Below are positions 8,755-57,204 of a stretch of DNA of 64,000 bases, piece by piece (the stretch's first letter is position 1; every line of letters begins with the position of its first letter). The stretch lies in assembly GCA_035356615.1 (NCBI GenBank), contig DAOQSN010000013.1, forward strand, positions 28,882-92,881, read 5' to 3'. Both the position numbers and the translations under genes were made by a program. The notes under the pieces were generated by a model that saw only the letters and a list, made by a program, of their open reading frames with translations, was not told where the DNA came from and did no database searches. The stretch is from Phycisphaerae bacterium. GTDB lineage: Bacteria > Planctomycetota > Phycisphaerae > UBA1845.

Positions 8755-11700
8755 ATGGGCGCGGCCACGCAACAACTCACCGACTACCTCGAACGTCTCC
8801 ACGAGTTGCGCCGGCATGGGGCGTCAGAGGACTCCATCCGTGACGGGTTCCTGAGCTTCCTGCGCGCCGCGTTTCCGCGGGTGGAGGAGGCCGAGCCGAT
8901 CGTGCTCGAGAAGCACATCCCGGGCCTGCGCGTGCGCGGCGGGTTCGCGGACGCCCTGTACGGCGACTTGATCCTGGAGTTCAAGCGGCGACTCGACGAG
9001 GTCGGCCGAGCGGACGGTCAGGCTGAACTTACCCGCTACATCACCAACCAGAGACACCCCGAACGATACCTTGGCGTCCTGACCGACGGGGAGACGCTCG
9101 AAGTCTATGGCCTCCGCGAGGGATCGCTGGGGAAGATCGACCAACTACGCCTGACCGCGTCCGACGCCGAGCGGGCGAGCCTCTGGCTCGACTGCTACCT
9201 GTTTCACGAGAAGAACCTGGTCCCCACCGCCAACGACGTTGCCCTGCGCTTCGGCGAGCGCAGCCCGAGCTTCTGGCGCACCCTGCGCGTGCTGGAGTCC
9301 CTCTGGCGACAGGCCGGCGCCGCGGCGCCCACGCAGACCAAGCTCGCCGAGTGGCAAAGCCTGCTCTCGATTGTCTACGGCTCCCGAGTCGGCGACGAGG
9401 ACCTCTTTCTGCGGCACACGTACCTCGCCTTGTTCGCTCGGGTGCTGGCATTCGTGGCGCTCGGACGCCGCGCCCCCGACGGCGACGCGCTGGCCGGGGT
9501 GGTGACCGGAGAGGTGTTCGAGCGGATGGGGCTGGAGAACTTCGTCGGGGATGATTTCTTCACCTGGGTCGACGCGCCCGAGTGTCGCCCGCGGACGTAC
9601 GGCATGCTGGCGGCCCTGGGTACGCGCCTGACGGTCGCCTACGACCTCAGCGCCATCAAGGAGGACCTGCTCAAGGAACTCTACCAGGAACTCGTTGATC
9701 CGGAGACCCGGCACGACCTCGGTGAGTTCTATACACCGGACTGGCTGGCGGAACTGACGCTGCGCGAGGCAGGCTTCCCCGGCCCCGGCGGTGCGTCGGA
9801 CGGCGTGCCCTCGCTGCTGGACCCCGCCTGCGGGTCCGGTACGTTCCTTTTCACGGCCATTCGCCTGCTGCGCGAGTCCGGACGCGACGGCGCCGCCCTG
9901 GCGGACTTCTGCGCCCACCACCTCGCCGGGCTCGATGTCCACCCCCTGGCCGTCATCATCGCCAAGACGAACCTGGTGCTGGCGCTGGGCGACGACCTCT
10001 CGCGGTTCCAGCAGGTGTTCACACTGCCGATCTTCATGGCCAACACGTTGGGTCTTGAGTTGCCTCGCATGCAAGCCGCCCCGGAGGGGCGACCCATTCG
10101 CGTCCCCATCGACCTGGACGCCCTGGTGAAGCGTTCCGGCAAGTCGCGGCCCCGGATCGCGCCTGAGTTCCATATCCCACCCGCACCACCCGAACGGGCC
10201 GAAGTGCTCCACCAACTTGTCGACCACATTGTGGGCCTGGGAGACCCGGGCGTGGAGGAGAAGGACGCGCTCGCGGGGCTCGATGAACGATTGAACGAAC
10301 TTACGGTCCCTCCGGCACACCGCCACTTCTGGCGCGACAATCTGCGTCTGATGCGCTGGCTTCTCGAACCGCCGGCTACGGACAGCGTTTGGCGGTTCAT
10401 CCTGAAGAACGCCTACCAGCCCGAACTGCTGGCCCGCCGGAAGTTCGCCTTTGTGGTCGGGAATCCACCCTGGCTCTCCTACCGTTACATCGAGCGCCGC
10501 GACTACCAGCAACGAGTGCGGGAACTGGTGTTCTTCTATGAGCTGTTGGGGAAACGCCAGGCCCACCTCTTCACGCACATGGAGCTGGCCACCGTGTTCT
10601 TCGCCCTCGGTGCCGAGCGCTTCCTGGCCGAGCGCGGCACGCTCGCGTTCGTCATGCCGCGGAGCATCATAACCGGCGCGAAGCAACACGTCGCCTTCGC
10701 CGATCGCTACCTGCGATGCGCACGGCTCATCGTTGACTGCGAACGCGTGGCCCCGCTGTTCCACGTTCCGGCATGCGCGGTAATCTGGGAGCGAACACGG
10801 ACCGCGCGTGGCAAGGACGCCGGGCGGGGGGCCCCGACCGTTCGGCTCCAGGGTGAGTTCCCCGTTCGCAACGCCTCGCTTGCCCAGGCAATGAAACACC
10901 TGGAACGCTCGGAAGGCGTCCACCATCCACCGGGCAGTACAGCGCCGAGCCCTTACTGGGAGCAAGTCACCCAAGGGGCGAGCATCGTTCCCCGCTGCCT
11001 CTGGTTCGTTTGCCCGCCCGCGACGGCGCGGCTTGTTGACAAGCGGCGTCCCTACCTGCAGACCGACTCGACGATTGAGCGCCAAGCCAAGCCGGCGTGG
11101 AAGGGCAAGCACGTCGAGGGCCCCGTCGAGGCGGACTTCCTCTACGCTACGTTGCTGTCGGACCACATGGTACCCTTCGGCTGGCGCCGTCTGTCCGTGG
11201 TAGTCCTGCCACTTGGAGAGAACGCCGATGGCGAGCGCCGGTTGCTCGATTCAGATGCAGCGGTCCGACTCGGGAAGCTGGGGCTCGCCGACTGGCTGCG
11301 CGCCGCGGCCGGACTCTGGGCGAAGCACGGGAAACACAGTCAGCGCATTCGGTCGGTTTCCGACAGGCTCGACTTCGGACGCTGCTTGACCCGGCAGCGC
11401 CCGTCCGGCGTTCTCAAGCTGCTGTACAACACCAGCGGGACACATCTGTGCGCCTGCCTCGTGGACGCCCGGTCGGAGTATCCGAAGACGATCTCTGGCT
11501 TGCCGGTTGGTGGGTTTGTTGCGCAGCATACAACCTACTGGTATGAGAGTGTGAAACCCAACGAAGCGCACTTCCTTTGCGCGGTGCTCAATGCCGCCAC
11601 GGTGGACAGGGTCATCAAGCCCTTGCAGGCCAAAGGCGCGTTTGGGGCGCAACACGGGGGCGGTGAGCGACACATCTGCCGACTGCCGTTCGAGGTTCTG

Positions 11701-11928
11701 CCAATTCCGGAGTTCTCGGGGAGCGACGGTCGGCACCGCGAATTGGCGAAGCTCAGCCGGCGCTGCCACGACCTGGTAGGCAGGTTCCTCGCGGAGCCGG
11801 ACGAGAAGACCATGAGTATGCCGATTGGGCGCCTGCGCACCCAGATTCGTCGGGAAGTGATCGCCGACGAACTCGCTCGAATCGACGCCCTGGTGGTGGA
11901 GTTGTTGGCCGAGCCCCCGGCCTCCTGA
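8755..11928 (+). CDS. MmeI-like type IIG/IIL single-chain restriction-modification enzyme (N6-adenine methyltransferase with an N-terminal PD-ExK-like motif)
   Basis: The N-terminal GFADALYGDLILEFK (D-x8-E-x-K) parallels MmeI GFVDLFWPGILLIEMK. The methyltransferase motifs are FYTPDWLAE, motif I LDPACGSGTFLF and motif IV VVGNPPWLSY. About 450 aa of C-terminal TRD-like region follow. Confidence 0.75.
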   Translation: MGAATQQLTDYLERLHELRRHGASEDSIRDGFLSFLRAAFPRVEEAEPIVLEKHIPGLRVRGGFADALYGDLILEFKRRLDEVGRADGQAELTRYITNQRHPERYLGVLTDGETLEVYGLREGSLGKIDQLRLTASDAERASLWLDCYLFHEKNLVPTANDVALRFGERSPSFWRTLRVLESLWRQAGAAAPTQTKLAEWQSLLSIVYGSRVGDEDLFLRHTYLALFARVLAFVALGRRAPDGDALAGVVTGEVFERMGLENFVGDDFFTWVDAPECRPRTYGMLAALGTRLTVAYDLSAIKEDLLKELYQELVDPETRHDLGEFYTPDWLAELTLREAGFPGPGGASDGVPSLLDPACGSGTFLFTAIRLLRESGRDGAALADFCAHHLAGLDVHPLAVIIAKTNLVLALGDDLSRFQQVFTLPIFMANTLGLELPRMQAAPEGRPIRVPIDLDALVKRSGKSRPRIAPEFHIPPAPPERAEVLHQLVDHIVGLGDPGVEEKDALAGLDERLNELTVPPAHRHFWRDNLRLMRWLLEPPATDSVWRFILKNAYQPELLARRKFAFVVGNPPWLSYRYIERRDYQQRVRELVFFYELLGKRQAHLFTHMELATVFFALGAERFLAERGTLAFVMPRSIITGAKQHVAFADRYLRCARLIVDCERVAPLFHVPACAVIWERTRTARGKDAGRGAPTVRLQGEFPVRNASLAQAMKHLERSEGVHHPPGSTAPSPYWEQVTQGASIVPRCLWFVCPPATARLVDKRRPYLQTDSTIERQAKPAWKGKHVEGPVEADFLYATLLSDHMVPFGWRRLSVVVLPLGENADGERRLLDSDAAVRLGKLGLADWLRAAAGLWAKHGKHSQRIRSVSDRLDFGRCLTRQRPSGVLKLLYNTSGTHLCACLVDARSEYPKTISGLPVGGFVAQHTTYWYESVKPNEAHFLCAVLNAATVDRVIKPLQAKGAFGAQHGGGERHICRLPFEVLPIPEFSGSDGRHRELAKLSRRCHDLVGRFLAEPDEKTMSMPIGRLRTQIRREVIADELARIDALVVELLAEPPAS

Positions 11929-15158: not shown

Positions 15159-16433
15159 ATGAAGTGGGCAGTTGGGCTAGTGGGGGCCGGCGTGGCGGCG
15201 GTGGTGCTGGTCGGGTTGGGCGGTTGCGGGCGACCACACCCCGGCGCCGGCGTGACGCACAGGGAGCAGATTGAGTCGGCGGCGTATCGCACGCAGTGGG
15301 CGACGCGGGCACCCGTGCGCCGCGGCGATGCCGTGAAGAGCTGCTACCTGGTGGATGACAACCTCTACGTGCTTACGCACGGCGGGGATGTGTTTGCCCT
15401 GCACGCGGAGCACGGCCTGCTGCGCTGGGGTGCCAGCCTGACGGAACGAGACTACACGGTCTACCCGCCGACACACCTGCAGACGCCGGATGGCCACGGG
15501 CCGGTGCTGTTCGTGACGACCACTCGGCTGTGGGTGCTGGACCGATACTCCGGCGACGTGCTGCTGTCGGTGCCCACGCCGTTTCCGCCCAGTGGCAGCG
15601 GGGTCGGCGACGAGCGTCGGCTGTACCTGGGCAGCACGGACGGGCACGTGTACTCACTGGCCTGGAAGCACGCCCTGGGTACGGAACCCAAGGAGCGATG
15701 GCGGGTGATGGTGGGTAGTCCCGTGGCCGGCGGACTGGTGTGGCAGGCCCCGGACGATCTGTATTTTGCCACGCAGACGGGGGCGGTGGTGCGTTGCGGG
15801 GCACGCCAGAAGTCGTTCGGCTGGGTGCAGCGCGTGGGAGGCAACGTGGTGGCGGACGTCTTCGTGGATGACACGGGCGTCTACGCGGCCAGCCTCGACC
15901 GTTCGCTGTATCGGCTCGAAGAGGCAAGCGGGGCGGTCCTGTGGCGGTGTCGGTTTGCGGACCCGTTGCGCAGCAGCCCGGTGACCGTGCACGAGACGTG
16001 CTACCAGTTCAACGAACGCGACGGACTGAGCGCCGTGGACATCAACACGGGGCTGGTTCGGTGGCAACGAGGTGACGGCTTGAGCGTGGTCGGCGCAGCT
16101 CCGGGCGAGGTCGTGGTACGCACGTCGGGCGGGGCGATTGAGGTGCTCGACGCGGCCACCGGGGCGACGCAGCGCGGGTTTGACGCGTCGGACGCGCGGG
16201 TGGCGGCGTGCAACCTGCGCGACTCGGCCGTCTATCTGGCCGCGGGTGACGGACGGGTGGAGTGTCTGCGTCCCGAGGGGGTGCCGTACCTGCGGCAGCA
16301 GGAAGTGGCGGCCTCGCGGGCCCAGCTTAACCGGGCCCCGCGCGGGACGGACGAGCTGATCGCTCCGCCGCCCGCGCTGCCGCCGGCACACGATGCCGAT
16401 CCGTTGCGCAGTTCCGTGGATCGCCGGCCGTAG
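15159..16433 (+). CDS. PQQ-like beta-propeller repeat lipoprotein (BamB-like fold)
   Basis: The ATG at 15159 gives MKWAVGLVGAGVAAVVLVGLGGCG, a signal peptide plus lipobox. The repeated blades end in ...G.VFAL....G.LLW / LYRLEEASGAVLWR / LSAVDINTGLVRWQ. Confidence 0.7.
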   Translation: MKWAVGLVGAGVAAVVLVGLGGCGRPHPGAGVTHREQIESAAYRTQWATRAPVRRGDAVKSCYLVDDNLYVLTHGGDVFALHAEHGLLRWGASLTERDYTVYPPTHLQTPDGHGPVLFVTTTRLWVLDRYSGDVLLSVPTPFPPSGSGVGDERRLYLGSTDGHVYSLAWKHALGTEPKERWRVMVGSPVAGGLVWQAPDDLYFATQTGAVVRCGARQKSFGWVQRVGGNVVADVFVDDTGVYAASLDRSLYRLEEASGAVLWRCRFADPLRSSPVTVHETCYQFNERDGLSAVDINTGLVRWQRGDGLSVVGAAPGEVVVRTSGGAIEVLDAATGATQRGFDASDARVAACNLRDSAVYLAAGDGRVECLRPEGVPYLRQQEVAASRAQLNRAPRGTDELIAPPPALPPAHDADPLRSSVDRRP

Positions 16434-16471
16434 AGCGGCTCGGTTGCTAATCAGGAGAGGCCCCCAGGCTC

Positions 16472-18187
16472 ATGACTCATCCCCAAGTACGGCGGGCGTT
16501 GCTGAGCACCTATGACAAATCGGGCATCGTGGAGTTCGCCCGAACCCTGAGCGTGGACTTCGGCGTGGAGCTGATCGCCACGGGCGGTACCGCGCGCCTG
16601 CTGAAGCAGCACCGGTTGCCGGTGACGCTGGTGGAGCAGATCACGGGTTTCCCGGAGATGCTGGACGGGCGGGTCAAGACGCTGCATCCGAAGATCCACG
16701 CGGGCATCCTGGCCGACCGTGACAACCCGGAGCACCTGCGGCAGCTTGAGGCCGCGGACGTCGTGCCGATCGACCTGGTGGTCGTCGATCTTTATCCGTT
16801 CGAGGAAGCAGTCGCGCAGCCGGGCTGCTCGCCGGCGACGGCCATTGAGATGATCGACATCGGGGGTCCGTGCATGCTGCGGGCGGCCGCCAAGAACCAC
16901 CGGCACGTGCTGGTGGCATCCGACGCGCACGGGCGGGAGCTGTGCCTGGCGTACCTGCGCGGCGAAGTACCGGGCGACGAGCTGACGTTGCGGCAGGAGC
17001 TGGCCGCGTTGGCGTTCAACCGCACGGAGGAATACGACGCGGCCGTCTGCACCTACCTGACCGAAGCGGCCCTGGGGCGACAGCCGGCGGCGCCGGGCGA
17101 GAGTGAAGAAGCGCCGTTTCTTACCGAGAAGGGGCAGGGGCTCATCCAGGTGCTGGAGGAGTCGCAGCCGCTGCGTTACGGCGAGAACCCGCATCAGCAG
17201 GCGGCCTACCTGGCGCTGTGCGGAGCCGAACTGGTGGGCGTGGCCCCCGCGTCTCAGGTCGCGGGCGACGAGGTGTCCTTCAACAACCTCGCCGACGCGG
17301 ACGCCGCCCTGCGGCTGGCTACGGAGCTTGCCTGCGCGGGCCGTGGCCTGCTCGGTGAGGAGGAAGGCCCGCCGCCGTCTGTCTGCGTGTTCATCAAGCA
17401 CGGCAACGCCTGCGGCGCGGGCGTGGCGGACGACCCGGTCGAGGCGTATCGCCGGGCGTATCTGGGTGATCCCAATGCGGCCATGGGCGGCGTATTGGCG
17501 TGCAACTTCGCCGTCGACGCCCAGTTCGCCGCGGCAGTGATGGATTCCTACGATCGCTGGGGCAAGGCGGCCGGCGCGGGCGGGTTCTTCGTGGAGGTGT
17601 GGGTAGCCCCGGCCTTCGACGACCATGCTCTTGGTCACGTCCGCGATGCGAAGAAATGGGGCCGCAAGGCCCGCCTGCTGGCGGTCGGCGACCTCGACAC
17701 GGAGTCCGAGTCGGCCGAGCTCGATTGCCGCCAGCTTACCGGCGGCATGCTCGTGCAGACGCCCGACCTGGTCGGACTCAACGAAGATGAGTGGAAGCTG
17801 GTGACGGATCGCCCGCCCACCGCGCGGGAGCTGGCGGACCTGCGGCTGGCGTGGCTGATCTGCAAACACACGCGCAGCAACGCGATCACTCTGTGTAGAG
17901 ATGGCATGCTCATCGGCAACGGCGCGGGGCAGATGTCGCGGGTGATGAGCTGTCGGATCGCCACCTGGCTGGCGCAGGAGAATGGGCATGCGGAGCGGCT
18001 GGGCGGGGCGGCCGCGGCCTCCGACGCCTTCTTCCCCTTCCGGGACGGTCCCGACCTGCTGCTGGCGGCCGGCGTTACCGCCTTCATCCAGCCCGGCGGC
18101 TCCAAGCGCGACGCCGACACGGTAGCCTCCTGCAAAGAGCGCGGGGCGGCGATGATCTTCACCGGCACGCGGCACTTCCGGCATTGA
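16472..18187 (+). CDS. purH: Bifunctional AICAR transformylase / IMP cyclohydrolase
   Basis: RALLSTYDKSGIVEFAR, ATGGTARLL, KTLHPKIHAGIL, VVVDLYPFEE and C-terminal SDAFFPFRDG...IQPGGSKRD all match PurH. Confidence 0.93.
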   Translation: MTHPQVRRALLSTYDKSGIVEFARTLSVDFGVELIATGGTARLLKQHRLPVTLVEQITGFPEMLDGRVKTLHPKIHAGILADRDNPEHLRQLEAADVVPIDLVVVDLYPFEEAVAQPGCSPATAIEMIDIGGPCMLRAAAKNHRHVLVASDAHGRELCLAYLRGEVPGDELTLRQELAALAFNRTEEYDAAVCTYLTEAALGRQPAAPGESEEAPFLTEKGQGLIQVLEESQPLRYGENPHQQAAYLALCGAELVGVAPASQVAGDEVSFNNLADADAALRLATELACAGRGLLGEEEGPPPSVCVFIKHGNACGAGVADDPVEAYRRAYLGDPNAAMGGVLACNFAVDAQFAAAVMDSYDRWGKAAGAGGFFVEVWVAPAFDDHALGHVRDAKKWGRKARLLAVGDLDTESESAELDCRQLTGGMLVQTPDLVGLNEDEWKLVTDRPPTARELADLRLAWLICKHTRSNAITLCRDGMLIGNGAGQMSRVMSCRIATWLAQENGHAERLGGAAAASDAFFPFRDGPDLLLAAGVTAFIQPGGSKRDADTVASCKERGAAMIFTGTRHFRH

Positions 18188-18293
18188 GGCGGCGCACCAT
18201 GAATCCCCGTGAATCGCGCCCGGTCGCGCGGGATGCGGTCCGTGCTTGTCGTCGTGGTAGACGGCGGAACACGGAGCGGCTATAGAAGCCGGG

Positions 18294-20462
18294 ATGCCGA
18301 CGTTGGAGGCACAATTGCGGGAGCAGCTTCTCGCGGACCTGACGGAGCCGCAGCGGGAGGCCGTCACGTGTACCGACGGGCCGCTGCTGGTACTGGCCGG
18401 GGCGGGCAGCGGCAAGACGCGGGTGATTACGCGGCGGGCGGCTTACCTCGCCGGCACGGTCGCGACGCCGGCGCAGGTGCTGGCCATCACGTTCACGAAC
18501 AAGGCCGCCCGCGAGATGCGCGAGCGCATCGACGCCCTGAGGTTGGCCGGCGGACTGCCGGTGGCGACGTTTCACGCCTGGTGCGCCCGCACCCTGCGTA
18601 TCCACCACGAACGGGCCGGCGTGCCGCGTGAGTTCACGATCCTGGACACCGACGATCGACGCAAGGTCATCAAGGACGCGACCCTCGCGGCCGAGTTGTC
18701 CCCGACGAACTTCCCGCCGGCGCGGGTCGAGAACCTCATCTCGCAGGCCAAGAACGCCCTGCGGCTGCCGGACCGCTATGAACAGCAGGCGGTCGATTGG
18801 GAGCAGCGAGCGGTGGCCCGCATTTACGCGGCGTATGAGAAGCTGCTGAGGCGGATGGCGTGCCTGGATTTCGACGACCTGCTCCTGCGCCTGGCCCTGC
18901 TGCTGGCCGAGGACGCCGAGTTGCGCGACCGGCTGGAGGAGCAGCACCGCTACCTGCTCATCGACGAGTACCAGGACACGAACGCGGCCCAGTACCAGAT
19001 CGCCCGGCTGCTCACCCAGCAGCGGCGCAACCTGTGCGCGACGGGGGATCCGGACCAGTCCATCTACGGCTGGCGTGGGGCGGACATACGCAACATCCTG
19101 TCCTTTGAGCATGACTACCCGGAGGCCCGCGTGGTGCGGCTGGAGCAGAACTACCGCTCGACGCAGCGCATCCTGGCGGTGGCGGACGCCCTGATTTCAG
19201 GCAACGTGCGTCGCAAGCAGAAACGGCTGTGGACGGAGAACCCGGCCGGGGCGGCAGTGCGCGTCGTCGAGTGTGAGACGTATGCGGACGAGGCCGAACT
19301 GGTGGCGCGGGAGATCGGGCAGGCAAAGACGGCCGGCACCCGCCTCGACGACGTGGCGGTGCTCTATCGCGTCAACGCCTTGAGCCGCGCGCTCGAGGAA
19401 GCGCTGCTGCGCGCGGGGATTCCTTACCAGATCGCGCGCGGGGTGGAGTTTTACAACCGCAAGGAGATCAAGGACGTCCTGGCGTACCTGCGGGCGCTGG
19501 TCAACCCGGCCGATGAGGTGTCGCTGTTGCGGGCGATCAACGTGCCGCCGCGGGGCATCGGCGAGACGACCCTGGAGCGGCTCGTTGGGCACGCGCGGGC
19601 TGCCGGTCGGACGGTGCTGGAGGTGATCCAGGCGGACGATCTGCAAGCCGTAGGGCGGGTGGCGGCGCGGGTGCGCGAGTTCGGCGTGCTGTGGGCGCAG
19701 TTACGGCCGCTGCTGGAGGGCCCGCCGTTTGCCGCCCTCGGCGCGGTGCTGCGGGAAAGCGGGCTGCGGGCGTACTATGGCGAGGAGAACGACCCGGACG
19801 AGGGGCGGCGCCGCAACCTGGATGAGCTGCTCAATGCCGCCCGCGAGTACGAGTTGCAGCAGCCGGAGGCCACCGTGCTCGACTGGCTCGAACACACGGC
19901 CCTCATCGGCGACGTGGATGCCGTGCGCGAGGGGACCGGGACGGTGACGCTCATGACGTTGCACGCGGCCAAGGGACTGGAGTTCCCGGTTGTCTTCATC
20001 ATCGGGCTCGAGGACGGGCTGTTGCCGTTCCGTCGCGAGAACGATCAGCCCGCTGACGACGAGGAGGAGCGGCGGCTGTGCTTCGTGGGGATGACACGGG
20101 CGCGCGAGGTGCTGACGCTGACGCGGGCGCGCCGACGCATGCTGCGGGGGAAGACGGAGTACACGACGCGCAGCGAATTCCTGGAGGAGGTACGCCGGGC
20201 AGGCGTGGAGTGGATCAGCACGGAGACGACCTCGCCAAGCCGGAGCCGGCACCCGGACGCGGGCGCGTTGCCCGAGGACGCGGAGGAGTGGGCTGTCGGC
20301 ACGCTGGTGCGCCACCCGCGTTACGGGCTGGGGCGTATCGAGGAGATCGCGCGCGGCGCCCGGCGGACGCACGTGCGGGTGCTCTTCGAGAGCGGGCATG
20401 AGCAGGCGTGGGTGCTGGAGTTTGCCGACCTGACGCGGGTGGACTTCCACGAAGTGGACTGA
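18294..20462 (+). CDS. UvrD/PcrA/Rep-family ATP-dependent DNA helicase
   Basis: It has Walker A AGAGSGKTRVITRR, ITFTNKAAREM, LLIDEYQDTN, QNYRS and TLHAAKGLEFPVVFI. A C-terminal Tudor-like segment reads VRHPRYGLGRIEEI. Confidence 0.9.
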   Translation: MPTLEAQLREQLLADLTEPQREAVTCTDGPLLVLAGAGSGKTRVITRRAAYLAGTVATPAQVLAITFTNKAAREMRERIDALRLAGGLPVATFHAWCARTLRIHHERAGVPREFTILDTDDRRKVIKDATLAAELSPTNFPPARVENLISQAKNALRLPDRYEQQAVDWEQRAVARIYAAYEKLLRRMACLDFDDLLLRLALLLAEDAELRDRLEEQHRYLLIDEYQDTNAAQYQIARLLTQQRRNLCATGDPDQSIYGWRGADIRNILSFEHDYPEARVVRLEQNYRSTQRILAVADALISGNVRRKQKRLWTENPAGAAVRVVECETYADEAELVAREIGQAKTAGTRLDDVAVLYRVNALSRALEEALLRAGIPYQIARGVEFYNRKEIKDVLAYLRALVNPADEVSLLRAINVPPRGIGETTLERLVGHARAAGRTVLEVIQADDLQAVGRVAARVREFGVLWAQLRPLLEGPPFAALGAVLRESGLRAYYGEENDPDEGRRRNLDELLNAAREYELQQPEATVLDWLEHTALIGDVDAVREGTGTVTLMTLHAAKGLEFPVVFIIGLEDGLLPFRRENDQPADDEEERRLCFVGMTRAREVLTLTRARRRMLRGKTEYTTRSEFLEEVRRAGVEWISTETTSPSRSRHPDAGALPEDAEEWAVGTLVRHPRYGLGRIEEIARGARRTHVRVLFESGHEQAWVLEFADLTRVDFHEVD

Positions 20463-25502: not shown

Positions 25503-25936
25503 GACGGTCGCCTGCTTTCTCCCGGATCCCCCCAAGTGTCAACCGGGCCCGCGCCCTGCACCCCGGTGCCGCTTGTCGTATCGTAGCGTGTTCGACCAGG
25601 GGGTGATACAGCATCCCGGCATGACGCAGTGGCCGGCGCAGACGTGAGCAGGGGAACCGTGTCGGCGGCGGCGTCCAGCCGCAGGGCCCGGGCCTGGCCC
25701 CCCGCGAACCGCGCGCCGCCCGGCCCTCGTGGGCTCACGCAGTCCCCGGATGGGAAGCACCCCCTTCCCCCGGTGCCGGCTCCACGGTATCCTGGTGTCT
25801 ATCAACTCTGGTTCAGGATGGCAACACCCACTCGGCGGTGGGGACGCCATCCAGGTGCGACCGCAGTTGCCTGCGGTGCGAAGGCGTGGGGGGCTGACGC
25901 GAACGTGCTCACATCATATTTGGGAGGAATGGAAAC

Positions 25937-26494
25937 ATGAACCGTACATGGCTGCTCCTGGGGATGCTCGGGGTGGTGCTGTTCACCACCATCCGGGCGG
26001 AAGCTACGTGCTGAGGGTGACACAGGTACAGCGGGCAGTCTGCCTGCGATACCGATTGGGTGACGGCCGAACAGTGTCAACAAGCCTGCCAGGCCGGCGG
26101 GTGGGACTGGTGCGAGTGGGACCCGGACCCGTTCGCGGTCTGCAATCCCGACAACACCTGCCCTAACCCCACGATCTTCTTCTATTGTGGTACCGGATGT
26201 TGTGAGTGAAGGGACAGCGTCATTGGCGCCCAGGATGGGTGCATGAACAATGCGACGTACGACGCCTGCGTGGCTGCCTGCCAGGCCGGGCGGTACTCCT
26301 GGTGCCGCTGGACGCCGAGCCAGCAGTGCCAACCCGGGTACGTTTGTGACGGACCAAACGCCCAGCTCATTCATGGGTGCGCGGATCCGCCGGTGCCTGC
26401 GGTTGCCGCATGGGGTGTGCTGCTGCTGGCAAGCGGGCTCGCCGCGGGTGGAAGTGCCACGATATGGCACCGACACAGGCGACGGCACACGTGA
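25937..26494 (+). CDS. Cys-rich secreted/anchored small protein, continuous only through three in-frame TGA codons (26012, 26018, 26207): selenoprotein, recoding or pseudogene candidate
   Basis: GGAGG lies 9 nt upstream of the ATG, and the signal peptide is MNRTWLLLGMLGVVLFTTIRAEA. Two paralogous Cys modules share ACQAG..WC.W. The C-terminus is PVPAVAAWGVLLLASGLAAGG...HRHRRRH, a hydrophobic stretch plus basic anchor. A hairpin follows the final stop. Confidence 0.45.
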
Positions 26495-26500
26495 ACGCAG

Positions 26501-26522
26501 GCGCTGCCCGGTCGGGCAGCGC
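26501..26522 (+). terminator. Perfect 9-bp GC hairpin (gcgctgccc-ggtc-gggcagcgc) 7 nt after the stop of the Cys-rich ORF
   Basis: The hairpin was read directly. No U-tract follows, so the assignment as an intrinsic terminator is tentative. Confidence 0.4.
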
Positions 26523-26700
26523 GAGTACGCGGTGACTGGTGCACGCGCGCGTAACGCGCGGATGATCCACACGCGACCCCTACGCAACCCCGGCCCCCGG
26601 AGATCACTCCGTGGGCCGGCTTCGTTCCGGCTCAACTGACGTACCTGGCCGCGGTCCGCGCGACGGCTACTGCGCAACCCCGCAGGGCGGCGCTCACGCC

Positions 26701-26898
26701 TCAGAACAACTTGTCCAGCTCCTGATCAAGCCAGTCGTCAAACGTGATCTCGCGGTGCTCATCATAGTTTACCACCGCGTTGACGCCGGCAACGAGACGC
26801 TGGAAATCGGTGGGGCTGCACGTCGTCTCCGCCAATGTGGCCAGCAGCGCTCCCGCCAGAACCTTCGCCAGTCTCCGCCCGGTTTGGGTATGGGTCAT
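26701..26898 (-). CDS. Small hypothetical protein (65 aa)
   Basis: ORF 26701..27018 was trimmed to MTHTQTGRRLAKVLAGALLATLAETTC..., a signal-peptide-like N-terminus. I recognise no family. Confidence 0.3.
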   Translation of the reverse strand: MTHTQTGRRLAKVLAGALLATLAETTCSPTDFQRLVAGVNAVVNYDEHREITFDDWLDQELDKLF

Positions 26899-41608: not shown

Positions 41609-44600
41609 TCATGGACCGGTGAACGCCTGCTGAAAGGCCGCCACGTCGGCCAGGTCCACGTCGTCATCGCCGTCGAAGTCCAGCGTGCCGCAATCAGGAA
41701 ACACGCCCCCCCGCGGGCCGGTCAGGCAGTCGGCAAGGGCGGTCAGGTCGTCGTAGTCCACGCGTCCATCGCCGTCCGCGTCGCCGTTGGCGCGCCGCAG
41801 CGCCCGCACCACTCGGAAGCCTATCTGAGCGAGCGTCGAGCGCGGATCGGCGAAGTTGCGCCGGTTGGTCGCCAGGCTCTCCGAACCGGTGGGTGGATGC
41901 ACGGTGCTGTAGCTGCCGCCGCGGACGGTACGAACGGCGAAGCTGCCCGGCGTGTAACGTCCCTGTAACCACTGATAGACGTTGCCGGACATGTCGAAGA
42001 GCTGGAACGTATTGGCATTGGCGTTCGTGGTGAACGAACCGCCGTGGTTCGAGCCGTCGTAGTAGCCCACCGGCGTGGTGCTGTTGTCGAACGGGTCGCC
42101 GCTGTTCTTGTAGTTGGCATCCGCGCCGGTCAGCGTGTCGCGTCCGCAGCCGTACACGGTGTTGCGCGCGAGGACGCTGTTCCAGGCGGCGGCCTTATAC
42201 CATTCGTTGTAGCCGTCGGCGAAGTCGACGCTGACGTCCGGGTTGTTGTAGCCTTCGTCCATCGGCAGGCGGTACCCGCGGTAGTTCTCCACCAGGGCAA
42301 GGCGTTCGTCATCGTTCAGGTCACGCGTGGACCACAGCGTGCCCGTTGCGGTGACCGGGCGCCAGCCCGCCAGGTCCGCGTCGCTGGCTTCGTTGTAGCA
42401 ACGCTGCTCCGGGCTCATCCCCTGGTCCAGCGTGAGCCAGTTGCAGTACTTCAGGGCCCCGTACCAGCTTGCGCCCGTAACGGGGTGGGCTTCGTAGCCG
42501 GTCTGCACCGAGTACATTTGCGTGCCGTCGTCGTAACTGATCCGCCCCCCCGCGGCCGGCGCAAACATCTTCACCGTGCGCGTGCCGGGCGAGGCTCCGG
42601 TTTCGCGCGCGGCGGTCGTGTTCACATACACGTCGCCCGTCGTCGTGTGGAAGAACATGTACGCACCGCGCGGGGCCGCAGACGTGGTTAGCGCGTCGTT
42701 CAGAAACGCCGCGAACTCGGCGTTGGTGGTGTGATACGCGGACATCTCGAAGTTGTACGCCGGCCCGCCCGGTTGGAGCACGTCCGCCGCGACGTGCGCC
42801 GACGACACGGCGAAGTGTGGATTCACCAGCGTCAGGCTCACGAGCCGCGTGCAGCTTACCGCGTTGGTGAGGTCGGTAAACACGACTTCGGCCTGGTTCT
42901 CGCCTTCCTGCAAGGGGGGGATGGTGGCGTTGCCCACGTCAATGGCGACGACGATGTGCGTCGTGCCGGCAGACGGGAGACTATCGACCACCGGCCCGGT
43001 CCCGCCGTTCAGCAGCACCCAACTGTTTGGTTCCGACGATTCGGCCCGCCACTGGATCGCGCCCGTGTCGTAATTCACGAGCGTGTAGATCGCCGTGGGA
43101 TCCAGGATCGGCCCCCCGGGCACGCCGTAGGCGGTCAAGCCGGTTCGCGGTCCAACCGAAAGCGTCTCCACAATGTGCAGGCGAACCGTCCGCGTCTGCA
43201 CGTGACCCGTGTAGGTGTCCGTGAACTGCACGGTGCCAACATACGTACCGTGGTACAACTGCAGTGCCAGCTCGTTCACCGAGACCGTCATGGTCGCAGG
43301 CGCGCCGCCGGGCAGCACCGTCACGGTGGCGGAACCGACATCCAGCCAATCCACGTCGGCCGCCACGTGAACGTCGATGCCCCTGTCCGTGCGGGCATTT
43401 GTAAGTGTATAGACTTGGAAGGGCAGCGGATCCAGCTCCGGCCCGACCTCCCAGGGGTCCTCGGTCGGCGTGATGAAGATCGGGTCCTGGACCACCACCG
43501 TGACCGTCTCCTCGAGCGTGGCCGAGAGGTTGTCGTTGCCGGGGTCAGTGAAGCGAAAGACCAGCACGGCGTCGTATTCTCCCACCGCCAGAGAGGCGGC
43601 GTCCTCATCCACGCTTACGTCGAAAGACAGGCCGGCGCCCGGCGTGAGCGTCCCGCTGAGCGGGTACTGCCCCGTGATGGACACCCACGGTTGGGCACAG
43701 CTTACCTGATATTGCAGGTTGAAACTTACGAGGCTGCTCAACGCAAACGTGCACGGGTTCGGGTTGATAAACGGGCCGCCGTAGAAACCGGTGAAGACGG
43801 CCGCGTCGTCCGGCGGCGTGACCGCGATGGGCCAGGCGACGTTCACGGTGGCGTTGCGGGTGCGGACTTCATTGGTCCGCGTGTTGCGCCAGGTGGCGAC
43901 GGCCACGTGGGTACCGGGGCCGAGGGCGTTGGCCTCACTGTTGAGCGTGAGGGTCACGGCGCCCTGTTGCCCGGCGTCCAGCGTGCCGCTCGCCTGCCCA
44001 GGCGTCGGCCCGGTGACGGTCAGCCAGGTCTTGTCCGCAGTCAGAGCCCACGGCATCGCGGCAGCCGAGCGGTTGGTGACCTCATAAAGCTGCGTCGTCC
44101 CCGCGGCCTGGCCGGAGCGGTACATACCGGCGTAACTGATACCGCCGCCCGGAGTCAGCAGGAACGGCTCGCGCAGATGCAGTAGGACAAAGCGTTTCTG
44201 CGTGGCACCGCTGAGAGAGTCGGTTACCGTGATCGCCGCCACCCGGCCGGGGTTGCGGACCACCCGAAACCCGACTTGGGCGTCGGCGAGGTCGGGCGCC
44301 AGCGGCTGGCGGGTGGCGTTGGTCAAGTACGCCGACTCCGGCGCGTCATCCCACCCACCGCCGCGCGCCGCCTGTTGCAGGTACGCATTTCCCTGCACCC
44401 ATTCGGCTGCGTTACCACATAGGTCGAACAAAGCGAACCCGTTGCCGGACGCGGTCGTCGGCGTTTCGCCGTCGCCGAGCACGTTTGCGCCATCGAAGAA
44501 ACCACGTGGTGTGGTTCCGCCGACTGTACAATCGTCCTCGTCCTCGAACGGGTCACCGCTGCACCGGAAGTTCGCGTCAGCGGCCGTCAGGGTACCGCGT

Positions 44601-47600
44601 CCGAAGCCGTAGGTGTGCTCGCCACCGGTCGCGTCGTCCCAGGCGGCCGCCTTGTACCACTCGTTGTAGCCACTTGCGCCCGCCTCGGCATCCAGCGGCA
44701 GGCGATAGCCTATGGTCTCGGCTACTATGTTTGCCGGGTCGAATGCCCCGGCAATCCAGTCGGCATCGCTTACGGTAACGGGGTGCCAGCTACTCAAGGC
44801 CGTGCTCGGGGCTTCCGTGTAGACGCGCAGCTCGGGCGGCAGGCCCGCGTTCAGGGTCAGCCAGTTACAATATTTGAGGGCTCCGTACCAGGTTACACCG
44901 GTAACGGGGTGATCCGTGTACCCGTCGTCAACCACGTAAGCGCCGCCGACAAACTGTATATGGCCCGCGCCGGCATCGTAGAGCAGCGGTCCTGCCCCGT
45001 CCGTACCCGCGGCGGGTTCCTGCGTGTCGTGTATATGCACATTGCCGGAGTCAGTGTCGAAATACATGTACTCGCTGCGTGGCCCCGGGTCAACCCCCAC
45101 GGCATCCTGATACGCGTTGTTGAGGAAGGCGGCGAAGTCGCTGTTGCGCACCTCGAATTGCGCCACCCAGTAGTCGTAGGCGGGCCCGCCGGGCTGAGCG
45201 GCATCTGCCGGCACCCAGGCACCGCTGCCCGGCGGTGCGGGTGACACACCGAGCGTATCCACCGCTTCTGACACCCGCAAACGTGCCTCCGCGGTGGCAC
45301 CGGGCGGAACGCGCGGACCGGCCGAGGTGTCCAGGGCCAGCCAGGCGGCGTCAACCGTCACGGACAACGTGTCCAGCGTGTAATCGCCCGCGTTCTCGAT
45401 GGCGAGAACGAACTCGGCAAGATCGTAGGGGCCGCCGACGTACGCCTCCAGACGCTGGGGGGGTACGGGAGTGAGATCGAACTGTGTAAGTGTGTCGGGG
45501 AGGGCCTGCGCCACTCGAAAGCCGAGGAACCGGTAGGCCGCGCTTGCTGCCTGCGAGTTGCGCCCGTCCGCGCGCAGGAGCGGCGCTTGAATCGCGTTGG
45601 TGTAGTTGCCGCCGCGCGTGGCGCGTTCCGAAGCGGTGCCGCCCACGTCCTGCATCCATTCGGATACGTTGCCCGTCATGTCATAGAGGCCGTAGCCGTT
45701 GGCCGTGTCGTTGGTGATGATCGGCCCGGCGATCTCGTGCACCCCATCATAGAACCCCACCGGTGTGGTGTCGGCGAAGGGATCAAGACTCAAGTAGAAG
45801 TTCGCATCGGCGACGGTAATCACGTTGCGCCCGAAACCGTAGTCGGCGTACAGGACGGTCTCCGGCAGCCAGGCCGCCGCCTTGTACCATTCGTTGTAGG
45901 TGCTGACCGCCGCGGCTCCGTCGTCCACGGGCAGGCGGAAGCCGCGCCATTGCCGCAGCTCCGCCGGCGTGCCGAGGGGGCACCACTGATCGGCCGGGTA
46001 GCCTTCGTGATACACCCGCTGGCCGGACATACCGTGAATGAGCGTCAGCCAGTTGCAGAACTTCAAGGCGCCGTACCACGAGACGCCGCCGACAGGGTGG
46101 TTCTCGAAGCCGCTCTGCGGGACGTAGCGACCGCCGGTGAAGCTGATGTAACCGTTGGCGGCCGCATCGAAGAGGACCGTGCCCGTTCCACTGGTTCCCT
46201 GGGTACCGGTCTGCGACGTGTGCAGGTAGACGTTGCCGCTGTCCACGTCGAAATACAGCCACGCGCCGCGTTCGTTGTTGACGTTGGCGAGCGCGTCATT
46301 GAGGAACAGGCAGTATTCGTGGTTGGTGACCTCGAAGCGGCCGATGCGGAAATTGTACGCAGGGGGGGCCGCGGCGTCGCCGGTGACCAGCGCCAGGTCG
46401 AGGACCACGCCGGCCGCGGTGATGACGAGCGTCACGCGGCGGGTGCTCTCGAACGCCGGTTCGAAGGTGGTGTCCGTGAAGATCAGGTCGCCGACGTACA
46501 CGCCCGCCGGCAACTGCGCCGCCACGTCGTTCGGTTCGATGGTCACCAGGGTGCTGCCGTTGGGCTCCAGGATCAGCCCTTCGGTCGGGTTGACGTCGAG
46601 CCAGTCGGCGCCGGACTCCGGGACAAACTCGGCTGACCACCAGCGCTCGCCGAGGGCATTGCCCGCCAGCGTGCAGGACGACGAAGGCGGGGTGAACTCC
46701 CCCCCGAGCGGGCGCGTGAAGCTGATATCGCCGGCCGGCGTTACCCAGTCGTTCACGGTCAGTCCGATGGTACGCTCCACGGTGAAGCCGCTGCCTGGAT
46801 CGTGCTGGAACCGCAGCGTGCTGTCATAGCTGCCGATGTCGAGGATCTCGGCCGCGTAGGTGAGCGTCGCGGCGACCTGCGTGCTGCCCAGCGCGGGGAG
46901 CGTACCCTGATAAGTGTTCAGGGCAAACCAGCTCGACGTCGGTTGTACCTCAACGCGCCAGGGAAGCGTCTCGCTCGCAAGGTTGCTGATCTGCCACTGG
47001 TGTTGCGCCGGCGCGAAGGGTCCCCCGGCCGGGCCGCTGAACAGTTGCGTGCCTGATGGTGCCACCGAGAACCACGGCAACACTTGCAGACTGACCGCGC
47101 GGACCCAGACGCTCCCCGTGCAGCCGTCTGCGAACGTCACCTCCGCAGTGAAGGTGCCGAGGTCCAGGCCGGCGGCCGCACCGGCGTCGATCGCAATGGT
47201 GACCGGCGCGGTGCCCTGCGCCGGGACTTCCCCGCCGACCGGCGGCTGGGTACCGTTCAGCGTCAGCCAATCCAGCCCCGAGGGCGTCGCCGTCGTTTCC
47301 TCCCAGGTGGCCGACCAGAGCACCGGCAGGTCCGAACCGTTCGTGAGTGTATACAGCTTGCTCCCCGGATTCGGCGTCCCACGATAGCGCATCGACGCCG
47401 CCAGGCCGCCGGAGGGCTCGACGTTCAGGGGCTCCGTAACCGTCAGGCGCAGGAGACGCTCGATGACCGTTCCCGGCGGCGGACCATACACAATACCCAC
47501 GGTGCCGATGTTCTCGCCCAGCGTCAGTTCATCGGTCGCGCACGCCGGCGCGACACGCACCGTGAACGCGTAGCTCTCCCCGGGGACCAGCGTGACGTTG

Positions 47601-51279: not shown

Positions 51280-51498
51280 CTACTGCGCTGGCGCAGCACA
51301 CCCAGATGATCCGGGCGCCTTGGGCGGTACCGCTTGAGGCGGAGCGGGTGTACCCCCGAGGATTCGCTGCTTCCAATCCGGCCAAGTTCCGACCACCCTA
51401 CTGGCCTGCTCCAAATGCTCGACGAACGCATCGCGTTGTCCTTGGTGCGCCTTTGCTTGAACCGGCATTTGCTTCGCTTTCTGCTTGTCAACCTCCAT
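51280..51498 (-). CDS. Small ORF (72 aa from the ATG) overlapping the stop of the deaminase gene; candidate partner protein
   Basis: The ATG at 51498..51496 is preceded by GGAG with a 7-nt spacer and overlaps the deaminase TGA (51490..51488) by 11 nt. The sequence is MEVDKQKAKQMPVQAKAHQGQRDAFVEHLEQASRVVGTWPDWKQRILGG followed by a Pro-rich tail. Confidence 0.4.
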   Translation of the reverse strand: MEVDKQKAKQMPVQAKAHQGQRDAFVEHLEQASRVVGTWPDWKQRILGGTPAPPQAVPPKAPGSSGCAAPAQ

Positions 51499-55800: not shown

Positions 55801-56070
55801 ATGGACGACGATGCGCTCGACCTTTGCGGGAAGATCTGCCCGTATCCCGTGGTGGCGATCGTCCGGGAAGTGGCGCGGCTGCGACCGGGCCAGAAGCTCC
55901 GGTGCATGGTGGACGATCCGCTCGCCCTGAAGTCGGTGCCCGAGGAACTGGAAGAGTTTCCCGATGTATCCCTCACGATCAGCAGCCGTGGCAGCGTGTG
56001 GGAAGTGATCGTGAAGAGACAGTTGAAAGGCAACCAGGACCATGAACATGAACGAGACCACGGGCCATAA
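55801..56070 (+). CDS. TusA/SirA-family sulfurtransferase
   Basis: LDLCGKICPYPVVAIVREV contains the CP.P active-site motif. The ORF is 89 aa. Confidence 0.8.
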   Translation: MDDDALDLCGKICPYPVVAIVREVARLRPGQKLRCMVDDPLALKSVPEELEEFPDVSLTISSRGSVWEVIVKRQLKGNQDHEHERDHGP

Positions 56071-56653
56071 CGCGCCGACTCCCGGCACCCGCGGTGTCAC
56101 GGAGCGGGCAGGGGGCGCCACTCGTCCCGATGTTGAGGAACGCCTCCGGCAGATTCCCACCGGGCAACCCGGGCGGGGAGAGACCGGCCGTCTGACCGAG
56201 CCCGCCTCTCCTGAGCCCCGCCGCACGACGCGGCGCAAGCTGAGCAACCCCCTGTTCCTCGTGGGCTGCTTCGCCGTCCTCAACGTCATCATGTACCTGA
56301 CCATCCAGAAGTTCTGGATCGGCGGCAGCAGCTTCCTGCCGTTGATCGGGATCCTGGGAGACAACCACGGCTTCCTCTTCGCTTTCCTGGTGAACGTCGG
56401 TGTCGTGGCGGGGGCCCTGGTGGGTGCACTCAGCAGTGGTGAGTTCCGCCTGCGGCTTCCCCGGAAAAGGGATTTGGCCAAAGCGATCGTGGGCGGGTTC
56501 CTGATCGGAATGGGTATCACGGTGGCGCCGGGCACGTGCACCACCGCCTTTGTCACCGGCATACCGATGCTCTCGGTGTCCTCGTTTCTGTCGGTGGCGG
56601 GCATCTTCATCGGCGCTCATCTGATATACGGCCACACCCTGGGGAGGCAATAG
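56042..56653 (+). CDS. YeeE/YedE-family sulfur-compound transport membrane protein (first half-size unit)
   Basis: The polytopic C-terminal 130 aa contain IVGGFLIGMGITVAPGTCTTAF. The first ~70 aa are disordered, so the true start may lie downstream. Confidence 0.6.
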   Translation: MNMNETTGHNAPTPGTRGVTERAGGATRPDVEERLRQIPTGQPGRGETGRLTEPASPEPRRTTRRKLSNPLFLVGCFAVLNVIMYLTIQKFWIGGSSFLPLIGILGDNHGFLFAFLVNVGVVAGALVGALSSGEFRLRLPRKRDLAKAIVGGFLIGMGITVAPGTCTTAFVTGIPMLSVSSFLSVAGIFIGAHLIYGHTLGRQ

Positions 56654-56655
56654 AC

Positions 56656-57200
56656 ATGTCATTTCCACTGCTGGCAACGCTGGGCGTGTTGTTCGGGATC
56701 GGCTTCGGCTACTTCGTGCAGCGGGCGGGGCTCTGCTTCGCCCACGGCCTGGGGGAGATCTACTTAGGCAGAGGCAAGCGTATTACCCGGATGTTCCTGG
56801 TGGTGTTTACGATCACCAGCGTGGGCTTCCTCCTGAGCGGGTATGTTTCTGACGCGCTGGGGCTGAAGGCCGTCGGCCAACTGCGCGGCTTTGGGTTCTA
56901 CAACGTGCTGTCCGGCATTCTGTTTGGGGCGGGGATTGCCCTGTGCGGCGGCTGCATTCTGGGTACCCTGCGCCAGCTCGGCGAGGGGAACCTCATGTAC
57001 CTGGTCGTGCTGGTTGCCTTGATTCCGGGAATGGCCCTGGTCGTGTACGGCCTCGATCCGCTCCTGGAGAAGGGTTACCACGTGGAGAAGCTCCTGCTTC
57101 CCGGACTGTTGGGCGTCGCGGCGCCGTACGTGACGGCCACGCTGGCAGCCGGTGCCGTGATCTGGTTCCTGGCCATCCGCAAGCGGACTCCTCGGACACG

Positions 57201-57204
<4 letters not shown>
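56656..57204 (+). CDS. YeeE/YedE-family sulfur-compound transport membrane protein (second unit)
   Basis: The ATG at 56656 follows directly after the upstream [19 protein letters not shown] and [13 protein letters not shown] are the conserved Cys-containing helices. Confidence 0.75.

Follow-up and report, generated by a model that had tools for sequence, protein, structure and literature searches.

A probable multi-selenocysteine gene in a Phycisphaerae bacterium: conserved hairpins and translation across in-frame TGA codons in a family of Cys-rich proteins predicted to be exported

Introduction

To our knowledge, the known bacterial selenoproteins are almost all intracellular or twin-arginine translocation (Tat)-exported redox enzymes that carry a single selenocysteine and have abundant Cys homologues. 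The closest described system at the RNA level is fdhF of Escherichia coli, in which the UGA is followed by the His codon CAC and, at a distance of 11 nucleotides (nt), by the hairpin GGUUGCAGGUCUGCACC, the selenocysteine insertion sequence (SECIS). At the protein level, the closest systems are secreted proteins with sorting signals at the C-terminus. PEP-CTERM/exosortase substrates share a short motif, a transmembrane helix, and a basic cluster in this position, and the S-layer protein mela_00855 of Methylomirabilis lanthanidiphila, which combines an N-terminal signal peptide with a C-terminal IPTL-CTERM, has been localized experimentally to the cell surface (PMC8671808). Here, we analyze a locus on a 64,000-nt stretch of DNA from a Phycisphaerae bacterium (the window; all positions are counted from its first letter) in which one reading frame on the plus strand, at 25937-26494, continues through three in-frame TGA codons. 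We conclude that this region is probably a single gene for an exported, surface-anchored, disulfide-rich protein whose three TGAs are read as selenocysteine.

Elements of both systems recur at this locus. The first of its two hairpins (type A) is GCGGGCAGUCUGCCUGC, which lies 10 nt from a UGA that is again followed by CAC. The core GCA-G(G)UC-UGC is common to this hairpin and that of fdhF, and both are stem-loops within the coding region that constrain its synonymous sites. As in IPTL-CTERM proteins such as mela_00855, a signal peptide is combined with a C-terminal layout of I-P-T-[LV]-x-x-W-G (seen in the relatives described below), a hydrophobic helix, and an Arg cluster; the passenger domain of mela_00855 is unrelated to that of the window protein.

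Results

A single frame through three TGA codons

A Shine-Dalgarno sequence (GGAGG at 25923-25927, plus strand) is found 9 nt before the ATG at 25937, as had been proposed in an earlier annotation made from the letters alone (the sequence-only reading), and a relative, L086, likewise has GGAGG, 8 nt before its ATG. Translated from this ATG, the frame meets TGA at 26012, 26018, and 26207, exactly where the sequence-only reading had placed them, and terminates at a further TGA at 26492. The resulting translation is MNRTWLLLGMLGVVLFTTIRAEATC-stop-G-stop-HRYSGQSAC...GCCE-stop-RDSVIGAQDGCMNNATY...HRHRRRHT-stop. G+C content at third codon positions (GC3) in this frame remains steady, at 0.74 to 0.80, across all of the stops. 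The coding sequence as a whole is delimited by this translation and by the same-frame architecture kept in the five relatives (L086 to L090). The features of the locus are as follows.

25937..26494, plus strand: predicted complete recoded coding sequence, 185 codons including three UGA (selenocysteine) codons, plus the terminal TGA
25937..26005, plus strand: signal peptide MNRTWLLLGMLGVVLFTTIRAEA, assigned by inspection, with predicted cleavage after A-x-A
26012..26014, plus strand: UGA-1, specific to the window, 16 nt upstream of hairpin A
26018..26020, plus strand: UGA-2, found in 5/6 loci in the motif T-C-C-x-U-[HN], 10 nt upstream of hairpin A
26021..26206, plus strand: Cys-rich module 1, 62 amino acids (aa) with nine Cys and G-C-C-E at the end
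26031..26047, plus strand: SECIS-like hairpin of type A (hairpin A), GCGGGCA-GUC-UGCCUGC, with a lower stem that in the window extends to 26025-26053
26207..26209, plus strand: UGA-3, found in 6/6 loci and 8/8 junctions in the motif G-C-C-E-U-R-D-S, 16 nt upstream of hairpin B
26210..26389, plus strand: linker RDSVIGAQDGC and Cys-rich module 2 (seven Cys)
26226..26242, plus strand: SECIS-like hairpin of type B (hairpin B), GCGCCCA-GGA-UGGGUGC, apex alone -10.1 kcal/mol
26390..26491, plus strand: C-terminal anchor PVPAVAAWGVLLLASGLAAGGSATIWHRHRRRHT, a diverged IPTL-CTERM-type sorting signal with motif, hydrophobic helix, and basic cluster
26501..26522, plus strand: GC-rich hairpin, a probable terminator without a U-tract, beginning 7 nt after the stop

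By inspection, the signal peptide has an Arg-containing n-region, a hydrophobic core, and an A-x-A c-region, and a basic n-region, core, and A-x-A are present in 6/6 loci, the c-region reading AEA, TYA, THA, ASA, or AYA in the relatives. Several further elements of the sequence-only reading were confirmed. The two modules are paralogous (BLASTP of module 1 against module 2, E = 3e-7, 16/44 identical, with Cys and Trp aligned); module 1 of the window lacks its own start codon, with AGG in place of the ATG that stands two codons after the TGA in the relatives; and the hairpin 3' of the terminal stop (26501-26522) folds at -22.4 kcal/mol (z = -3.1). A scan for consensus terminators did not call the latter hairpin, which lacks a T-run.

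The TGAs are not an artifact. The product of a neighboring gene was found on 15 contigs, from which five loci from independent assemblies were taken for comparison (ENA ERZ27257442; JGI 3300009685, 3300025859, and 3300009687; and Logan SRR4236648). The five come from different samples, and each matches the window with 100% identity over 25700-26700; the TGAs are therefore not assembly or read errors, a possibility that the sequence-only reading had raised. No gene caller called a gene spanning the whole region in any assembly; in NCBI, the region is annotated as two hypothetical-protein fragments, PKK06_08575 and PKK06_08570 (contig DAOQZI010000012.1 of the metagenome-assembled genome [MAG] "Phycisphaerae bacterium" GCA_035343535.1).

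Two open reading frames (ORFs) on the minus strand overlap or adjoin the locus. A 291-aa Arg-rich open frame (25802-26677) runs antisense to the whole locus; it is called by no gene caller and is a typical high-GC shadow ORF. A 65-aa ORF (26701-26898), called in all assemblies, converges on the candidate selenoprotein gene and has a hydrophobic N-terminus, LAKVLAGALLATLAETTC, similar to a signal or lipoprotein peptide, and it matches no known family.

Five diverged relatives share the architecture

A word-indexed protein search with the read-through sequence as query returned no homologue; the relatives exist only as called fragments, which this search missed. A synteny scan of genome contigs carrying the neighboring GH31 gene found a Cys-rich relative at 0/80 loci (the closest GH31 match, 56% identical, was in a Planctomycetota MAG), and scans of metagenome contigs, with a single sequence and with the two-module alignment, yielded no confirmed relative. 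An exhaustive HMMER search of 1.84 billion representatives, with a profile built from the window's own two modules, recovered the window's fragments and three true relatives (P0004, P0005, and P0006), and a second, alignment-based search added P0010, P0011, and P0012. Four other profile matches (P0003, P0007, P0008, and P0009) were rejected as Kunitz-type or other repeat proteins with spurious similarity in their Cys patterns. The contigs of the relatives are L086 to L090, so that with the window six loci could be compared. The gene is thus one that every gene caller missed or fragmented and whose family was recovered only by exhaustive profile search combined with inspection at the DNA level.

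The relatives are 66 to 79% identical in nucleotide sequence to the window and to one another, have GC contents of 48 to 64%, and represent, with the window, at least four lineages: the window itself, L090 (79% identical to the window), L087 (68% identical, and at 48% GC compared with 67.5% in the window), and a group of L086, L088, and L089. All share the same building plan. A signal peptide leads to A-T-C-C-[GSE]-stop-[HN]-M-Y-S-G-Q-S-A-C and a module; a junction then reads G-C-C-E-stop-R-D-S-x-x-G-A-Q-D-G-C-M-[ND]-[ND]-A-[TS]-Y and leads to a further module, junction and module being repeated in some members; and in the relatives the C-terminus has the form I-P-T-[LV]-x-x-W-G...R-R-R. The window, L087, and L090 have two modules, L086 and L088 have three, and L089 is cut by a contig end. 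The N-terminal T-C-C-G-stop segment is absent from L086.

Translation crosses the TGA codons

Comparison of the window with its five relatives shows that translation continues across the conserved TGAs. As the sequence-only reading had anticipated for a recoded gene, the interruptions fall at the same positions, are always TGA, and remain in frame, with the peptide conserved on both sides. All 14 internal stops at the junctions of the six loci are in-frame TGA, versus true terminators that comprise three TAA, one TAG, and one TGA (Fisher p = 0.0013). Directly after the junction TGA, R-D-S is encoded in 8/8 junctions, with no start codon before it, and its codons vary synonymously (AGG, CGA, CGC, or CGG for Arg; GAC or GAT for Asp; AGC or AGT for Ser) and are therefore translated. 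Between the window and L090, the ratio of nonsynonymous to synonymous substitution (dN/dS) amounts to 0.089 in module 1 and 0.098 in the linker with module 2, with a proportion of synonymous differences (pS) of about 0.7; segments downstream of the TGAs are therefore under strong purifying selection at the protein level. Furthermore, no segment but the first has a signal peptide (its lack on the anchored part had been noted from the letters alone), and no segment but the last has the C-terminal sorting signal, a design that makes sense only as one polypeptide.

TGA is otherwise an ordinary stop in this genome, as the sequence-only reading had stated for purH: besides purH, 10/16 confident nearby genes end in TGA. 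A reassigned genetic code (code 4 or 25) was rejected on the same count, together with the finding that 0/16 of these genes have an internal stop. No other read-through candidate was found within the window.

Conserved hairpins follow the TGA codons

Hairpins A and B share one design, a perfect 7-bp stem closed by a 3-nt loop, and begin 10 nt after the conserved N-terminal TGA (type A) and 16 nt after the junction TGA (type B). The hairpin that the sequence-only reading described after the second TGA was borne out by folding (-17.2 kcal/mol, z = -4.1, 0/200 shuffles as stable). The "weak hairpin" that it placed at 26221-26237, after the third TGA, was mislocated and is not weak; the real one is the type B element at 26226-26242, with the same 7-bp stem and 3-nt loop. 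Beyond the apex, the relatives do not keep the lower stems of the window (GGUA/UACC and UCAU/AUGA), and our claim is limited to the 7-bp apex.

These elements are constrained as RNA. Type A is 100% identical in five loci and type B in 8/8 junctions, among loci that span 48 to 67% GC. When degenerate codon columns with a conserved amino acid were compared, 0/12 varied inside the hairpins (0/6 in each type) versus 5/5 in the flanks (p = 1.6e-4), and the chance of zero synonymous differences, calculated with pS of 0.70 to 0.90 and 8.0 synonymous sites, ranges from about 7e-5 (L090) to 1e-8 (L087). In an alignment of 13 hairpin elements, 91/91 cells pair, versus at most 50% in slid controls, and at pairs 4 and 5 of the stem, type A has G-C where type B has C-G, a compensatory difference. 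Altogether, both TGA contexts have a conserved hairpin, without synonymous variation and with compensatory changes between types, which upholds the SECIS-like placement suggested from the letters alone. A generic form of the hairpin motif occurs within the window only at these two sites and in 2.7 Mb of unrelated DNA only once, and there without a TGA 10 or 16 nt upstream. Searches of viral contigs for the invariant hairpin strings gave no matches.

The bSECISearch consensus for bacterial SECIS elements includes a G in the apical loop and a loop about 16 to 37 nt from the UGA. Both hairpins have these properties: they lie downstream of the UGA in the coding region, their loops are GUC or GGA, and the first loop nucleotide lies 20 or 26 nt from the U of the UGA. 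The hairpins also encode homologous residues at the starts of the modules, S-G-Q-S-A-C in type A and G-A-Q-D-G-C in type B. Since they thus coincide with the codons for the first residues conserved in each module, the repeat unit of the family is a cassette of UGA, hairpin, and module.

UGA-1 alternates with Cys

The sequence-only reading had raised the question of whether Cys or TGA occupies the three positions in homologues. For UGA-1 both are found: at 26012 the window has TGA where L087, L088, L089, and L090 have a Cys codon, TGC or TGT. All members have TGA at the other two positions. The 16 nt between UGA-1 and hairpin A equal the spacing at every type B junction, and decoding of UGA-1 as selenocysteine is therefore plausible; the mature N-terminus would then be T-C-U-G-U-H.

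The C-terminal anchor

The tail of the window protein is the positional homologue of the L090 tail, IPTVSQWGLIVLALLLLIAG..RRRP. Against PF18203, for which the cutoff is 20.8 bits, L090 scores 30.2 bits and L088 23.5, and L087, at 20.5, is borderline, just below the cutoff. The window tail (PVPAVAAWG...RHRRRH) keeps the layout of P-x-x-W-G, hydrophobic stretch, and RHRRRH. It had been described as PEP-CTERM-like in the sequence-only reading, a label that we replace: there is no P-E-P motif and no PEP-CTERM match in NCBIfam or Pfam at E<=10, and the relatives match IPTL-CTERM. The read-through protein as a whole falls into no Pfam or NCBIfam family. The signal peptide shares a polypeptide with this IPTL-CTERM-type tail only if the UGAs are decoded, and we found no report of an IPTL-CTERM protein with selenocysteine in the literature searched.

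A separate feature of these signals was seen on contig L087 (48% GC; 2-640 and 1055-1546). There, the Arg cluster of the IPTL-CTERM is followed, both in the family member and in an unrelated upstream IPTL-CTERM protein, by the same extra extension of ~100 aa, which contains multiple transmembrane helices. This extension looks like a lineage-specific elaboration of the sorting signal and not like the consequence of a lost stop codon.

Other genes in the window

Elsewhere in the window, a 617-aa protein (51488-53341, minus strand) matches the NCBIfam model for anti-phage dCTP deaminase at 460 bits, above the cutoff of 400, and its gene is therefore assigned to phage defense. A 1,057-aa protein (8755-11928, plus strand) with weak matches to N6_Mtase, MmeI_Mtase, and Eco57I is probably a type IIG/IIL restriction-modification enzyme. 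Giant ORFs of 2,415 aa and 2,790 aa are found in the window (41609-48856, minus strand) and in its right flank (L091/L092, 11533-19905, minus strand); the 2,790-aa ORF has faint CLIPPER/DUF7927 matches, and a PKD-repeat protein follows the giant ORFs. These are probably large surface proteins.

Discussion

How the gene would be expressed

The suggestion that this locus encodes a multi-selenocysteine or otherwise recoded protein, first made from the letters alone, is supported by comparative evidence, which falls short of proof. In the mechanism that we propose, each UGA would be recoded as selenocysteine by the bacterial SelB mechanism, with a hairpin of 7-bp stem and 3-nt loop starting with G, placed 10 or 16 nt after the UGA, acting as the SECIS and binding SelB. 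A Sec-type signal peptide (here named for the export pathway) would be cleaved after A-x-A to leave T-C-U-G-U-H at the mature N-terminus, followed by two paralogous Cys modules of ~60 aa joined by G-C-C-E-U-R-D-S and by an IPTL-CTERM-type tail that would anchor the exported protein. Duplication of the cassette of UGA, SECIS, and Cys module would explain the relatives with two and three modules. Hairpin A of the window would act on both UGA-1 and UGA-2, which are 6 nt apart and precede it by 16 and 10 nt; each of these spacings occurs elsewhere in the family.

Two extensions of this proposal are held with less confidence. We consider it slightly less likely than not that these loci form an undescribed, cassette-built IPTL-CTERM family that depends obligately on selenocysteine and in which a single SECIS in the window strain serves two UGAs 6 nt apart. 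More doubtful is the speculative idea that the CC-x-U triads between the disulfide-knotted modules could be redox-active or metal- or chalcogen-binding sites at the cell surface. An AlphaFold2 model of module 1 is of moderate quality, with a predicted local distance difference test (pLDDT) score of 67.7, and a Foldseek search of this model against the PDB gave no significant match (best E = 1.8).

Several observations weigh against a selenocysteine-containing, anchored protein. The window tail PVPAVAAWGVLLLASGLAAGG...RHRRRH gives no match to PF18203 at E<=1, and the hairpins give none in Rfam at the gathering score or at E<=10. No homologue with Cys at UGA-2 or UGA-3 was found among 1.84 billion representatives and 5.8 billion clusters, and almost all selenoproteins have Cys homologues (PMC12013277), which makes UGA-2 and UGA-3 atypical. 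The family is also small, with six loci, three of which are mutually close relatives. We know of no documented bacterial precedent for two UGAs that share one SECIS, and UGA-1 could be a recent nonsense mutation. Searches by tblastn with E. coli SelA and SelB queries found no match in ~72 kb of the MAG GCA_035343535.1, and no tRNA-Sec was found in the same ~72 kb; this is about 1 to 2% of a genome, so the negative result for the machinery is uninformative. The same tblastn screen did detect selA and selB on L074, an unrelated locus from Lachnospiraceae that served as positive control. Within the phylum, the full selenocysteine machinery is present in some Planctomycetes (Gemmata, Isosphaera, and two algal isolates; PMC4807772); for Phycisphaerae, the literature searched contains no report of selenocysteine use.

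Two side observations concern genes with an established or possible role in selenium metabolism. On L074, a locus from the GH31 scan, the selA and selB genes are adjacent (16314-19597). Within the window (55801-57204, plus strand), two half-size Sulf_transp genes (YedE/YeeE-type; 201 and 182 aa) come after a TusA-like gene of 89 aa. We do not count these genes as evidence of a link to selenium (YedF/YedE), as all their NCBIfam matches fall well short of the cutoffs and do not distinguish YedF/YedE from the thiosulfate transporter TsuA; they may form either a selenium or a sulfur uptake system.

Alternative explanations

We consider it unlikely, though deserving of attention, that the family is genuine and the copy in the window disabled, in which case the change of TGC to TGA at 26012 would be a nonsense mutation that stops translation after 25 residues in this strain. 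That TGA is unique to the window, where four relatives have Cys; it would place two UGAs on one SECIS, for which we lack a bacterial case; and the window has also lost the ATG after UGA-2 (ATG to AGG) and has a diverged IPTL motif. The TGA nevertheless falls 16 nt before hairpin A, at the spacing of all eight type B junctions, and a change from Cys to TGA beside a SECIS is the classic exchange between Cys and selenocysteine. The downstream sequence has no frameshifts or stops and a dN/dS of about 0.09, although dN/dS over long branches cannot detect recent inactivation, and the allele is identical in at least five samples. It is improbable, in our judgment, that the UGAs are instead decoded by a near-cognate or suppressor tRNA (Trp, Cys, or Gly), with the hairpin merely stimulating read-through. 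The comparative evidence does show translation across the UGA and not the identity of the inserted residue, and no SelA, SelB, or tRNA-Sec match was found in ~72 kb of the MAG. However, SelB/SECIS is the only established bacterial mechanism with a coding-region hairpin 10 to 20 nt after the UGA, the apex resembles that of fdhF, and alternation of Cys with TGA in a Cys-rich redox context is typical of selenocysteine. Decoding by an ordinary tRNA would also lead us to expect a sense codon in some lineage, yet TGA is kept in 14/14 cases.

Real stops are harder still to reconcile with the data. They would make the locus an operon of three or four tiny cistrons that reinitiate at nearby ATGs, with the hairpins as intercistronic regulatory or processing elements. 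In the relatives, the segments after the TGAs each have an ATG (TGA-CAC-ATG, and GGG-TGC-ATG preceded by AGGA), a point that also tells against read-through, and gene callers annotate these segments as separate ORFs of 49 to 86 aa. The R-D-S codons between TGA and ATG evolve synonymously, however, and hence are translated; module 1 of the window lacks such an ATG yet has a dN/dS of 0.089; and the frame is kept at 14/14 junctions. Moreover, the middle Cys-rich segments could not be exported, as signals are found only on the first and last segments, and the first "cistron" would be a bare signal peptide of 25 to 29 aa. A decaying pseudogene of a secreted Cys-rich protein, with nonsense mutations biased to TGA by high GC, is effectively refuted. 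It would account for the lack of a called gene across the region in any assembly, for the failure of the word-indexed search to find a homologue, and for a GC3 of 0.75, lower than the 0.82 to 0.89 of housekeeping genes. Decay is at odds with stops that are conserved in position across lineages with saturated synonymous sites, always TGA and in frame, as it is with dN/dS values of 0.09 to 0.10, the lack of frameshifts or other stops, and the conservation of the adjacent RNA hairpins; nor are relatives at 66 to 79% identity contaminating copies of one sequence.

Novelty and significance

Decoding of the TGAs as selenocysteine in one exported protein would most likely use the standard SelB/SECIS mechanism, which is already known. 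What we rate as new is the protein family, its cassette-based multi-selenocysteine architecture, the predicted export of its members to the surface, where they would be anchored, and the possibility that two UGAs make use of a single SECIS. No multi-selenocysteine family that is CTERM anchored, secreted, Cys rich, or planctomycete is mentioned in the family table of a 2022 review, in the 2025 deep-Sep paper, in the 2026 BSepDB paper (111 families), or in a 2026 review of the prokaryotic selenoproteome, and NCBIfam release 20 has no model for the family. The family appears undescribed; an earlier description is possible in two papers by Haft on new selenoprotein families, which lie outside this comparison.

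If our interpretation is correct, these proteins would be secreted by the Sec pathway, anchored at the surface, and equipped with several selenocysteines, two of which seem never to have been replaced by Cys, and the multi-selenocysteine content would have been reached by duplicating a cassette with its own SECIS. The window gene would then be the first in bacteria in which a single SECIS is shared by two UGAs, and its product would be among very few exported multi-selenocysteine proteins in bacteria. The family would offer a compact natural system in which to study the tolerance of SelB to spacings of 10 and 16 nt and the reuse of a SECIS by adjacent UGAs, and its small, well-defined hairpins could serve in engineered multi-selenocysteine proteins. 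It also suggests that extracellular selenium chemistry, based on CC-x-U triads, may occur in Planctomycetota of engineered or anaerobic communities.

Comparison with known systems

The likeness to fdhF is accompanied by clear differences. The product of fdhF is a cytoplasmic molybdoenzyme, whereas the protein described here is small, Cys-rich, unrelated in sequence, and predicted to be exported to the surface; two or three selenocysteines per protein are proposed, each with its own SECIS by way of a duplicated cassette; and the hairpins have a perfect 7-bp stem and a 3-nt loop, no bulged U, and a spacing of 16 as well as 10 nt. Among prokaryotes, archaeal FrhD/VhuD likewise contain more than one selenocysteine (PMC13188914). 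These proteins differ from the window protein in being cytoplasmic and hydrogenase associated, in using archaeal SECIS elements in the 3' untranslated region (3'-UTR), and in their unrelated sequence. Eukaryotic selenoprotein P (PMC6301783) resembles the protein proposed here in being secreted, rich in Cys and selenocysteine, and furnished with several selenocysteines. There is no homology between the two. In selenoprotein P, SECIS elements in the 3'-UTR serve many UGAs from afar; in the family described here, by contrast, every UGA or pair of UGAs would depend on a hairpin next to it within the coding region. By analogy with selenoprotein P, a role in selenium transport or storage might be imagined for this family, which we offer as speculation.

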